Notes: a model not told the origin generated them from the letters alone. Counted from the first letter of the stretch, positions 5,204 through 8,333 are shown. The stretch: 30,733 nt of DNA from Chloroflexota bacterium (GCA_026705105.1 JAPPBK010000395.1:1-30733); one strand, 5' to 3'. Made by a program: numbers and translations.

Positions 5204-5356
5204 TCAGCGGTAACCGTCTCGGCTGCGGCCTAGACGGCCCAGCACCCGCCAGGCGCCGACGGGCGCCATAGCTGCGATCGCGGCACCCGACAGCATCATG
5301 ACCACGTGGAGCAGGTCCTCGACGAAAACGAGAACGGGCAGCACGACGTCGCTCAC
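5204..5356 (-). CDS. Small hydrophobic membrane protein (50 aa); weak holin-like candidate
   Basis: GTGA overlap with the upstream stop; hydrophobic core and basic C-terminus (RVLGRLGRSRDGYR). Confidence 0.48.
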   Translation of the reverse strand: MSDVVLPVLVFVEDLLHVVMMLSGAAIAAMAPVGAWRVLGRLGRSRDGYR

Positions 5357-5586
5357 GGCGCCTCCAGCGGCCGGCCATGCACCCGGAGCGTGACGGACGT
5401 GCCGTCCGCCAGCTTGATCCAGGCCTCCCGGGCGCCTTCCACCAGGCCGATCAGCTCGAGCTTGCCGGCGACCAGGTTGCGCGGATTGATCAAGCCGGAC
5501 TCGTTGCCGTCGGTGTCCGTCAACCGGACGCGGTCGGCGTGAAGGCACGCGGCCAGGGCCACGGCTTCGGCGTCGGTGAGCCGCAT
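5353..5586 (-). CDS. Hypothetical protein (77 aa)
   Basis: ATG at 5586 overlaps the TGA of the beta-barrel gene; MRLTDAEAVALAACL... Confidence 0.55.
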   Translation of the reverse strand: MRLTDAEAVALAACLHADRVRLTDTDGNESGLINPRNLVAGKLELIGLVEGAREAWIKLADGTSVTLRVHGRPLEAP

Positions 5587-6107
5587 CAGAACCGGGCGCC
5601 GATCCAGACGCGCACGGCGTCGTCCTTGCCGAATGTGCGCTGTCCGATCGTGACGACGTCGTCGGCCGCCAGGTGGTAGCTGATGCCGGCGACGAGCGCG
5701 TCCTTGGCCAGCGTGAGCTCGGCGCCCGGCGCGAACGTGGCGTCGCCGCCGTTGACGCCCACGTGGTACTCGGCCACGGCCGCGACGTCGAGCGTGTAGC
5801 CGTCGCGCTCCGTCTGGTAGCCGAGCGTGACCTTGGCCGACTGGACGTCCTCGAGGGCGAGTTCCGCGGCAGCCGCGGTGAGGTCGGCGACCGTGCAGTC
5901 GTCGGGGCATTCAAGGTCGACGTTCGCGCCGTCCTGGACCGTGAAGTGGCCGCCCAGCGTGAGCCCCGAGGGCCAGGTCCAAGTGCGGCCGATCGAGGCC
6001 TGTAGATCGTGGCTGGCGCGCACGTGAGTTTCGGCATCCTGAGCTGCCGCGGTGCCGGTAACGGCCGGCGCCAGCAAAGCTATCGCGAAGGTGATTGCTT
6101 GCTTCAT
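5586..6107 (-). CDS. Putative small outer-membrane beta-barrel protein (173 aa)
   Basis: Signal peptide ending AAA|Q; alternating amphipathic strands; C-terminal VRVWIGARF ending in Phe. Confidence 0.68.
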   Translation of the reverse strand: MKQAITFAIALLAPAVTGTAAAQDAETHVRASHDLQASIGRTWTWPSGLTLGGHFTVQDGANVDLECPDDCTVADLTAAAAELALEDVQSAKVTLGYQTERDGYTLDVAAVAEYHVGVNGGDATFAPGAELTLAKDALVAGISYHLAADDVVTIGQRTFGKDDAVRVWIGARF

Positions 6108-6127
6108 GTATCAGTACTCCCGGACCT

Positions 6128-7459
6128 TCATTCTTCTGTCTCCACGGGCAACGCCTCGAGCAGGCACTGCCAAGAGTCGTTGACCGGCTGACCGTCGCGC
6201 GATAGCGGGCCAGTCGGCAGGACGGTTCTCCACCCACACTGAGCGAGAACCGGATCGGCGACGAGACGGCAGCCGTCGCGTTCGCCGGCGGTGTCGTTGG
6301 ACCAGAACGCCTGGCCGATGACCGTTGTCGAACCGGAAGCATACGGCTCGTCATAGAGCACCCACGCCGGCAGCGGCTCGACCTCCTGGGCGGTCCAGTC
6401 GGGCAGCGCTTCGCGCAGGTGCTCGCGGCACTCGGCGATCTCGGCAGCGGTGATCACCGGCGGCGGTACATCGCCGAGGACGTTGCCGTACCGGTCCCAA
6501 GGCGGAAGGTCGAACCGTTGCCCGCCGTACTCCTTCAACACGCGCTCGACCGCGTTGTCGACGGTCGTCGGGTCGGCGTCGGGAATCGTGATCGTGCGGA
6601 TCTCCGACTCGCCGGCGAAGCCGATGCTCACCGTGGCCGAGTAGTGGCCGAGCCCCGAGGTCGGCTGGAGGTCGACCGCGCCCAGGCGCCCGGTGTGACC
6701 GGTGTAGGTCGTCCCGTCGTGCGTGCGCGTCCAGTCCTTGCAGTCGGGTACGAGCGGCGCGTCCTTGCACGGGACGTCGAAGTCGATCCAGGTCCAGCCC
6801 CGCACCTGCCAGGTCAGGTCCAAGTCGGCCTCGACCGTGCCCTGCTGCACCAACAGGATCGCCAGCACGATCTGACCGCCGGGCACCTCGGCCTCCACCG
6901 CATCTTTGGTCCCGATCTCGACCGACTGCGATTCGCTATGTGACTCGCCCACGGTGACGGAGAAGTCGACGGACTCGCTGACCTTGTCGGAGCCGAAGCC
7001 GGCCTCGACGCCGACCGACAGCCCGAGCGTTGCCGACGTACTCCATTCGATCGAGGACGACGTCGTGATCGTGTCGCTGATTTCGGTCGAGAACCGGACG
7101 GCGACATCGGAGTCCGAGTTGTCCCACACGTGATGGGTCAGGGCGCGGGGCGTCAGGATCACGCGGGCCTTCGAGCGCTGGACCGACGGGACCAGCACGG
7201 ACGGCTGGAGCGCGCCGGTGCCGCCGACGTGGTTGCCCCAGGCCGGATAGTGCGCGTGCGCCCAACGCAGGTTCTGATCCTCGTAGTCGGGCACGCCGCC
7301 GGTGTGGGTGCCGGTGAGCGTGAACTTCGTGTCCGCCAGCGTCAGGGCCGGCTCGATGCTGAGGTTGAAGTCAGGCGGGGCCGGAGCACTGACGGTGCTG
7401 CAGCCGAGCACGACGACTGCGACCGCGGCCGCGACGACGGAAAGGATCCTGTTGCTCAT
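6128..7459 (-). CDS. Lipoprotein with an aerolysin/ETX-MTX2-type beta-pore-forming domain (443 aa)
   Basis: Real start MSNRIL at 7459, lipobox-like VLGC; Ser/Thr-rich strands flank an amphipathic hairpin (WSTSATLGLSVGVEAGFGSDKVSESVDFSVTVGESHSES) followed by VEAEVPGGQIVLAIL. Confidence 0.72.
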   Translation of the reverse strand: MSNRILSVVAAAVAVVVLGCSTVSAPAPPDFNLSIEPALTLADTKFTLTGTHTGGVPDYEDQNLRWAHAHYPAWGNHVGGTGALQPSVLVPSVQRSKARVILTPRALTHHVWDNSDSDVAVRFSTEISDTITTSSSIEWSTSATLGLSVGVEAGFGSDKVSESVDFSVTVGESHSESQSVEIGTKDAVEAEVPGGQIVLAILLVQQGTVEADLDLTWQVRGWTWIDFDVPCKDAPLVPDCKDWTRTHDGTTYTGHTGRLGAVDLQPTSGLGHYSATVSIGFAGESEIRTITIPDADPTTVDNAVERVLKEYGGQRFDLPPWDRYGNVLGDVPPPVITAAEIAECREHLREALPDWTAQEVEPLPAWVLYDEPYASGSTTVIGQAFWSNDTAGERDGCRLVADPVLAQCGWRTVLPTGPLSRDGQPVNDSWQCLLEALPVETEE

Positions 7460-7472
7460 GGCGGGCACCGTA

Positions 7473-8333
7473 TCAGCGGTCGTCGTCGTCGAACGGCGCC
7501 GTCCCGTAGGCCGCGACCAGATCGCGAACCGTTCGTGTGGCGCCGTCCCGGGTATGGCAGACCGTGTCCGGCGGCGCATCGGCCGGGTCCACGCGCCAGG
7601 CGGCCGTACCGTCGCCGAGCACGACGAGGACCAGGAGACCGTCGTCGTTGTCGGCACCGGGCGCGTACCAGCGAACCAGCGCCGGCGGCTTGGCTTCGGC
7701 GTCGGCCCTCACGATGTGATAGCTCCGCACGGTTTCGAGCATGGCCGCGAAGGACTGGCTCATCGCCTGCTGCTGGGCTGAAGGCCATCCGACCACGACC
7801 TGCGTCTCCTGCGGGTCGGGGGCCACGTAGTGCCCGTCGATCTCGAACCGCGCGCCGTCGGGGATCGCCAAGCTGGCGGAGCAGCACCGGAGGTTCGCTC
7901 GCAAGTCCACCAGCATCTGCTCCATCGCATCCTGCTGTTCTGGAGTCCACTGGATCGTGAGCAGGATCCCGGCGTCCTCTGCCGGCATCCGAAGCGTGTC
8001 GACCACGACGTAACCGTTCTTGGGAACCCAGAGGTTCACCGCGACGAACGCCTGCTGCCGGTCGTCGTAAACCGCCGCGACGGGTTCAATCGTGACCTTG
8101 AGCGCGCTCACGCTCTCGGCCCAGGTGCCGAGCGCAGCCGTCGCGATGCCGGACAGCGGAGGCTCGTAGGCGATGGTGATCGTGCCCGCGTCGATGTTCG
8201 TGATCGACGCCGGCGAGATCGCCACCGAAACCCCGCTGTCGTTGTCGTCGTCGGGGACCAGGGCCGCGCAGGAGACACCGGCCAGCAGCAACAAGGCCGT
8301 GATCGGCAGGTGATCGAACGTGCGAGGAATCAC
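7473..8333 (-). CDS. Secreted protein or lipoprotein of unknown function (286 aa)
   Basis: Hydrophobic N-terminus ending in GVSC (imperfect lipobox); internal repeat WTPEQQDAMEQ / WPSAQQQAMSQ. Confidence 0.65.
   Translation of the reverse strand: MIPRTFDHLPITALLLLAGVSCAALVPDDDNDSGVSVAISPASITNIDAGTITIAYEPPLSGIATAALGTWAESVSALKVTIEPVAAVYDDRQQAFVAVNLWVPKNGYVVVDTLRMPAEDAGILLTIQWTPEQQDAMEQMLVDLRANLRCCSASLAIPDGARFEIDGHYVAPDPQETQVVVGWPSAQQQAMSQSFAAMLETVRSYHIVRADAEAKPPALVRWYAPGADNDDGLLVLVVLGDGTAAWRVDPADAPPDTVCHTRDGATRTVRDLVAAYGTAPFDDDDR

Follow-up and report, generated by a model that had tools for sequence, protein, structure and literature searches.

What use a phage could make of a tightly packed set of exported proteins, one of them a lipid-anchored pore-former, is the question raised by five genes (P0001 to P0005) in a 30,733-nucleotide (nt) stretch of DNA from a Chloroflexota bacterium (GCA_026705105.1, JAPPBK010000395.1:1-30733), referred to here as the window. 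The five genes, all on the minus strand, fill positions 5204-8333 exactly and are termed the cassette. The answer proposed is that the cassette could be a late module for permeabilising the host envelope or for phage egress, a reading to which we give a probability of about 0.4. Among the roles considered, egress is the best supported because pore-former genes of this kind have holin-like neighbours, because they are retained in minimal elements and because canonical lysis genes are missing.

The cassette as the tail of a fibre operon

In the order of the operon, P0001 (7473-8333) encodes an exported repeat protein of 286 amino acids (aa), possibly a lipoprotein. It is followed by P0002 (6128-7459), whose 443-aa product is a lipoprotein with a predicted beta-pore-forming domain of the aerolysin/ETX-MTX2 type, and by P0003 (5586-6107), encoding a 173-aa exported, beta-rich protein with a terminal Phe, a candidate small outer-membrane barrel. 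The last two genes are short, with P0004 (5353-5586) encoding a soluble, leaderless protein of 77 aa and P0005 (5204-5356) a small membrane protein of 50 aa with a basic C-terminal tail.

The junctions between these genes are short or overlapping. P0001 and P0002 are separated by 13 nt, and P0002 and P0003 by 20 nt that include a GGGAG Shine-Dalgarno sequence. The P0003 stop and P0004 start share 1 nt (TGATG), there is a 4-nt overlap (GTGA) between P0004 and P0005, and a GGAGG lies 5 nt 5' of the GTG start codon of P0005. All five genes are coding-like by the guanine-cytosine (GC) content of their codon positions (0.45-0.50 at position 2 and 0.80-0.92 at position 3), and identical gene calls were obtained in independent assemblies of the window phage (L005-L009). 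The cassette is a real, well-delimited operon tail. A reading made beforehand from the DNA alone (the sequence-only reading) had described five co-oriented, tightly packed genes with export signals on three proteins; the coordinates, junctions and independent assemblies agree with this, and the export signals, assessed by eye and with a hydrophobicity script, were seen in P0001, P0002 and P0003.

The operon that the cassette ends begins with a 179-aa gene (11305-11844, minus strand), followed by a 767-aa fibre-like gene (8990-11293, minus strand), a 218-aa gene (8330-8986, minus strand) and then P0001 to P0005. The stop codon of the 218-aa gene overlaps the start of P0001 by 4 nt (GTGA). No sigma-70-like promoter was found in positions 3500-12500, and there is no GC shift at the cassette. 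It is coupled by translation to the fibre operon, whose tail it forms, and is not an autonomous insertion.

The two ends of the window are joined in assembly L005, which shows a circular genome of ~30.7 kb. Its phage genes include those for the major capsid protein, portal, large terminase and tail proteins, a tyrosine recombinase and a ParA/ribbon-helix-helix (RHH) pair. Because it is circular and carries virion genes, the tyrosine recombinase and the ParA/RHH pair, the window is a complete, temperate podovirus-like phage-plasmid.

This position bears on function. A tailed virion cannot contain exported or lipidated proteins, and yet those of the cassette would be co-expressed with the fibres, which argues for a late function in the envelope. 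The position also bears on the alternative of envelope remodelling in the carrier state, in which the cassette would block superinfection or raise host fitness in the style of Bor, Lom, Cor or Llp. Exclusion factors are typically lipoproteins and outer-membrane proteins, and the element is temperate with an integrase and a ParA/RHH pair. With lambda Bor and Lom the cassette has in common a phage-encoded lipoprotein and a candidate small outer-membrane barrel. The cassette genes, however, lack a separate promoter-like site or a GC shift, and are coupled to the fibre genes; no homology to the Bor, Lom, Cor or Llp families was found in Pfam, PHROG or NCBIfam, and the pore-former fold is unlikely as a receptor blocker. 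Carrier-state remodelling is accordingly considered improbable. The precedent of Bor and Lom invoked in the sequence-only reading is not supported, for the same reasons, as the cassette has no sequence relationship to them and, unlike them, is a multi-gene unit coupled to late fibre genes.

A lipid-anchored protein of the aerolysin superfamily

The leader of P0002 ends in a canonical lipobox, V-L-G-C, which fits the pattern [LVI][ASTVI][GAS]C. A pore-forming domain at approximately residues 28-315 is followed by a Cys-containing C-terminal domain of 128 aa. As a single sequence, P0002 reached an E-value of 0.013 against PF03318 (ETX_MTX2), at 15.8 bits and under the cut-off of 22. A full-database profile search recovered 187 representatives of its relatives, and PF03318 was matched by 14 of the 60 relatives used for a family profile, with a best E-value of 1.4e-7. 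When compared with solved structures, the 60-member profile matched Cry23Aa1 (6.5e-9), parasporin-2 (2.9e-7) and 7ml9 (2.4e-6), as well as a natterin-like protein, Cry51Aa1 and epsilon toxin.

At approximately residues 140-175, P0002 contains an amphipathic hairpin in which Ser/Thr alternate with hydrophobic residues. This stretch is conserved across the family alignment and is spanned by the profile alignments to the Protein Data Bank (PDB). These matches support the placement of P0002 in the aerolysin/ETX-MTX2 superfamily of beta-pore-formers, and the description of P0002 as a pore-forming toxin lipoprotein in the sequence-only reading is borne out at superfamily level by the family profile, together with the lipobox.

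The likeness to the aerolysin/ETX-MTX2 toxins (PF03318, PF01117) thus lies in the pore-forming module of the solved members, which the P0002-family profile matches, and in the amphipathic, Ser/Thr-rich insertion hairpin. Unlike those toxins, P0002 is predicted to be lipid-anchored and is encoded by a phage, in a late operon where it has recurring partners; its C-terminal domain is unique, and its nearest kin are mostly leaderless. The 128-aa C-terminal domain did not match the extensions of other long family members.

Export differs across the family. Some 75-80% of 150 pore-former family representatives are leaderless, their sequence opening with the conserved N-terminal strand; signal peptides or lipoboxes occur in a minority. 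Both nearest relatives of P0002 (52-53% identity) have an N-terminal signal-anchor. No match to P0002, P0013 or P0014 was found by tblastn in cultured phages and plasmids. In wider scans of IMG/VR, JGI metagenome and GTDB data, P0001, P0002, P0011 and the alignments A4 and A5 returned nothing, and P0012 was the only query that gave a locus.

Pore-former genes in other phage elements

Three sequences with a pore-former homologue (L001, L002 and L003) represent a single genome of ~10.0 kb and 69.8% GC in different circular permutations; L001 (1-10145) has a 141-nt terminal assembly overlap, and L004 is a diverged relative. The 11 genes of this genome encode a large terminase, an HK97-type capsid protein, an S78 protease, a 695-aa protein, two small proteins, a portal, a P0003-like protein, a small open reading frame (ORF), the pore-former and one reverse-strand gene, and none of the 11 is a replication or integration gene. 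In L001 and L004 the P0003-like gene lies one small ORF upstream of the pore-former homologue.

This genome has in common with the window phage only the P0003-like gene, the pore-former and a fibre fragment, the last being a segment of ~50 aa found in the 767-aa fibre-like protein and in the 695- and 582-aa proteins of the 10-kb elements. These elements retain the P0003-like gene and the pore-former as a pair despite having almost nothing else that is non-structural. The ~10.0-kb element could be a satellite able to form capsids, or else a minimal phage with the same host as the window phage.

In two further phage contigs the pore-former gene has holin-like membrane proteins as neighbours. In L010, fibre-like genes with fn3 and CBM domains are followed by the pore-former, a P0001-like gene and a gene for a 119-aa protein with two membrane spans. 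In L020, an IMG/VR phage contig with 48% GC, genes for a tail fibre, an Ig-like 611-aa protein and a helical lipoprotein precede the pore-former, which is leaderless; 3' of it are genes for a 71-aa protein with two spans, as in a class II holin, and for an 89-aa lipoprotein. With its flanking genes (9541-11347, plus strand), the L020 pore-former is laid out in a way that resembles a lysis cassette, yet no peptidoglycan hydrolase was detected in it.

A different kind of partner was found in L016, from a genome of the same phylum, where a 120-aa protein (3834-4196, minus strand) is encoded ~1 kb from a leaderless pore-former gene. This protein is 41% identical (E 2e-24) to residues 305-417 of P0023, a C-terminal extension fused to the pore-former in a protein of 'Chloroflexi bacterium'. 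By this similarity it would be a further accessory domain, fused in one relative and separately encoded in another genome.

In all inspected contexts the pore-former gene lay close to, or at, the 3' boundary of the virion genes. An all-against-all Smith-Waterman shuffle comparison that included the neighbours in L001, L010, L016 and L020 gave only two partner links, between P0003 and L001 and between P0001 and L010, and these apparent links are new. The view of the genes as one functional unit, put forward in the sequence-only reading, gains from this recurrence of partners beside pore-former homologues in unrelated mobile elements. The expected co-occurrence was seen pairwise, with P0003-like genes in L001/L004 and a P0001-like gene in L010, and not for the three genes, since the P0001-, P0002- and P0003-like trio was never found together outside the window phage.

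These contexts also bear on whether the cassette is toxin cargo, made late, exported and freed at lysis in the manner of Shiga toxin, and directed against non-host cells, for instance competing bacteria or the cells of a eukaryotic host or grazer. P0001 would then be a chaperone or immunity protein and P0003 an envelope partner. The superfamily includes insecticidal and cytolytic toxins, some family members carry eukaryote-like secretion leaders, and three cassette proteins have export signals; phage toxin genes also sit near the end of late operons, and the Shiga-toxin-type genes of lambdoid phages are likewise exported and within late transcription, beside release functions. On the other hand, a lipid-anchored toxin is not freely released, most relatives of P0002 are leaderless and found in phage late modules beside holin-like proteins, and retention of the pair in the minimal 10-kb elements would be odd for dispensable cargo. 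The cassette also differs from Shiga-toxin-type genes in its unrelated fold, its lipid anchor, its recurrent partners and the lack of a link to a pathogenic host. Toxin cargo is therefore regarded as rather unlikely.

P0001 and its recurring association with the pore-former

The leader of P0001 is hydrophobic and contains an atypical lipobox-like sequence, A-G-V-S-C. Its G-V-S-C falls outside the strict pattern that P0002 fits, and is presumably compatible only with a looser, PROSITE-type lipobox rule. P0001 contains at least two copies of a repeat of ~60-75 aa, ending in R-S-Y-H-I-V-R, and its internal repeat score was reached by 8 of 2000 shuffles. No match was found in Pfam, PHROG, NCBIfam, PADLOC or the PDB.

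Residues 122-209 of P0001 match a leaderless 150-aa protein of the phage contig L010 (BLASTP 6e-6; shuffle z 8.7, with the score reached in 0 of 2000 shuffles), and the R-S-Y-H-I-V-R ending is common to both. The L010 gene lies directly 3' of the gene for P0018, a leaderless pore-former homologue. The pore-former and its P0001-type partner are thus both exported in the window phage and both leaderless in L010. The 150-aa gene itself (L010:10873-11325, plus strand) is a near-perfect tandem duplication of a 75-aa unit, which could be real or an assembly artefact.

Such matched localisation is what a toxin-immunity or abortive-infection pair could display, with the pore-former killing and the P0001-like protein inhibiting it, for use against competing phages or in plasmid addiction. 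The accessory domain of P0023, fused to a pore-former or encoded nearby, points the same way, and phage-plasmids often carry defence cargo. This function fits poorly with the location of the cassette inside a late fibre operon and with the retention of pore-formers in minimal capsid-encoding elements, and no PADLOC match was obtained, so that a pair of this kind has only a slim chance of being correct.

P0003 and the barrel question

P0003 has a signal-peptidase-I type leader ending in A-A-A-Q and a mature length of ~150 aa. In a word-indexed search it appeared to be an orphan. A full-length alignment was obtained with the 179-aa protein of L001/L004 (31-35% identity, pairwise E 1e-14, shuffle z of ~20), and all these proteins keep the leader, a Cys pair and a terminal V-R-V-x-[IL]-G-x-R-F. 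P0003 ends in V-R-V-W-I-G-A-R-F and its homologues in V-R-V-G-L-G-F-R-F, with the V-R-V and the terminal G-x-R-F invariant among the three known members. The C-terminal Phe named in the sequence-only reading is therefore present, within an alternating pattern.

The leader, the beta-signal-like end and ~8-10 alternating amphipathic beta segments fit a small outer-membrane barrel, for which P0003 is a candidate; the label 'outer-membrane beta-barrel' is an interpretation and not an observation. Because the mature protein has only ~150 aa, a barrel would have at most ~8 strands. P0003 scored 16.7 bits against OMP_b-brl (PF13505), for which the cut-off is 28.7, and its profile found no match in the PDB. 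AlphaFold2 models had a predicted local distance difference test (pLDDT) score of 36 from the single sequence and 39 from three sequences; Foldseek gave no match at E 0.001 or better, and the matches that it returned were meaningless.

These properties are the ones that matter for a surface display or delivery unit, in which a barrel would translocate or anchor the lipoprotein toxin in the manner of Slam, as had been suggested before the present analysis. P0003-like and pore-former genes do co-occur, and the C-terminus of P0003 is beta-signal-like. Slam proteins have ~500 aa, with an N-terminal TPR region and a 14-strand DUF560 barrel, and the likeness is limited to the idea of a barrel paired with a lipoprotein. 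P0003, with its 173 aa, is about one third of that size; its mature form is too small for a translocating barrel, it has no DUF560 or TPR match and no significant family match, and the barrel is itself a candidate fold (AlphaFold2 pLDDT 36 and 39). Omp85 was also absent from the bin that contains the window contig. A Slam-type translocator is thus not supported, and the display unit as a whole is very improbable. Toxin display in the broader sense is possible and is not favoured, as the relatives of P0002 are mostly leaderless, phage-borne and beside holin-like proteins.

P0004, P0005 and the search for lysis genes

P0004, whose start overlaps the P0003 stop (TGATG), has a GC content of 0.92 at third codon positions and no family match in Pfam, PHROG, PADLOC or NCBIfam. 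P0005, called as a gene in all independent assemblies of the window phage, has one hydrophobic span and a basic C-terminal tail, R-x-x-G-R-x-G-R-S-R. Its only family match is weak (phrog_1130 'membrane protein', E 0.057), and the protein resembles a holin in format alone.

Comparison with Pfam and PHROG, over ORFs that take in nearly all the likely genes of this 30.7-kb genome, revealed no endolysin, holin or spanin. One protein (22305-23834, plus strand) matched phrog_5107, 'amidase (lysis)', and was rejected as an endolysin, having no Pfam or PDB amidase match. In related phages this protein is annotated as tubular tail B, structural or stabilisation protein; the 'amidase' label is probably wrong, and the protein looks like a tail tube B or nozzle protein.

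Host of the phage-plasmid

The window is one whole contig and, at 30.7 kb, the longest in a bin of 474 contigs (the next is 21.9 kb); its GC content is 69.5%, against 65.9% for the bin. Omp85, LptD, WhiB and archaeal S8e were not found in the bin; Omp85 was also not found in one genome of the same genus and four others of the same phylum. Penicillin-binding proteins (PBPs) and MurG are present in the bin and its genus; the bin organism looks like a monoderm, Dehalococcoidia-like bacterium that makes peptidoglycan. The class relatives of the bin include complete genomes of 1.4-1.9 Mb, one of which (1.5 Mb) lacks PBPs and MurG. These features would fit Dehalococcoidia/Chloroflexota, and one member of the pore-former family carries the label 'Chloroflexi bacterium'. 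A peptidoglycan-free host had been considered as the reason for the missing endolysin, and is rejected on account of the PBPs and MurG of the bin and its genus.

No attachment-site-like, spacer-like/CRISPR-like or other sequence match linked the contig to the bin. The cultured relatives of the capsid and nozzle proteins all infect diderms, namely Bradyrhizobium, Myxococcus, Stenotrophomonas, Sulfitobacter, Rhizobium, Brucella and Microcystis. The binning of the window contig is doubtful, and a mis-binned contig from a diderm host is slightly favoured.

A proposed role in phage egress

If the cassette is an egress module, it would be made late, together with the fibres, and its target, as infection ends, would be the envelope of the host itself. 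Oligomers of the tethered pore-former would insert a beta-barrel pore into the membrane that anchors the protein or the one that it faces, a task comparable to that of a holin, a spanin or a disruptin, the last being a small phage peptide that disrupts the outer membrane. P0001 could bind the pore-former and restrain or chaperone it, P0003 could be a membrane partner or docking site, and P0005 a holin-like trigger. Leaderless relatives in other phages might achieve this from the cytoplasm, or once holin lesions have let them out.

The lysis cassettes of phages of diderm hosts, composed of holin, endolysin and Rz/Rz1 spanins or including a disruptin, offer the closest comparison. The cassette, like these, ends the late or virion genes and mixes a small membrane protein with one or more envelope lipoproteins. 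The export route of the pore-former relatives varies (Sec/lipoprotein or leaderless), as it does between endolysins of the signal-arrest-release (SAR) type and holin-dependent ones. Unlike those cassettes, it has no homology to holin, endolysin or spanin families, its gene order is different and a beta-pore-former is central to it.

A wider claim would be that aerolysin-type beta-pore-formers, tethered or leaderless, form an unrecognised class of phage egress or lysis effectors with dedicated partners, replacing or supplementing holin, endolysin and spanin, and that this class extends to the minimal ~10-kb capsid-encoding elements. Taken jointly, these propositions are offered tentatively, and we regard them as doubtful. 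Full-text literature searches turned up no paper tying aerolysin-family proteins to phage lysis or anti-phage defence.

Several points weigh against an egress role. The pore-former family is known from sequence and gene context alone, and proteins of the aerolysin family are, classically, toxins that act against other cells. Phage toxins that are made late, exported and released by lysis exist, as the Shiga toxin genes illustrate. The undetected endolysin is a weak negative, since most genes in the genome are without annotation, and the bin genome makes peptidoglycan. The likeness of P0005 to a holin extends to format only, with a gene order unlike that of canonical cassettes, and the independent contexts inspected number four. 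The envelope type of the host is also ambiguous, as the bin looks monoderm and the cultured relatives of the phage infect diderms.

Repeated sequences elsewhere in the window

A 38-nt motif containing a perfect 16-bp palindrome, TCGACCTCGAGGTCGA, occurs in four copies in the window. Two of them bracket the unit that runs from 11844 to 5204. The copy at 11816-11847 (minus strand) covers the start codon of the 179-aa gene, at the upstream boundary of the unit, and the copy at 5156-5193 (minus strand), which holds the palindrome, is 10 nt past the P0005 stop, at the downstream boundary. Further copies were found at 3866-3903 and 29417-29454 (both plus strand). The short-k assemblies L006, L008 and L009 break exactly at copies of the motif. 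It could act in transcription, as operator or promoter, or in recombination, as a target site beside the gene for a Cre-like recombinase.

Tandem repeats were observed in two other genes. At 20047-21786 (minus strand) a 579-aa protein with four K319L-like PKD domains is encoded by repeats of ~309 nt that are 83-88% alike. Repeats of 87 nt at 25580-25952 (plus strand) lie within the gene at 24201-26141 for a 646-aa virion protein (weak phrog_6121 match); the neighbouring protein weakly matches 'pilot protein for DNA ejection'.

Significance

Pore-forming toxins of the beta-barrel type are known for their use against other cells. If the egress reading is true, a phage-borne subfamily located in late operons, with conserved partners and holin-like neighbours, would extend the known modes of breaching the envelope, and its members would be a new group of self-acting pore-formers that come with their own regulators. 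Few capsid-encoding genomes are smaller than the ~10-kb elements in which the pair is retained, and these elements are of interest in themselves. The pairwise partner links provide concrete pairs for interaction tests, and the assignment would help to annotate an unnamed family of ~190 sequence clusters.

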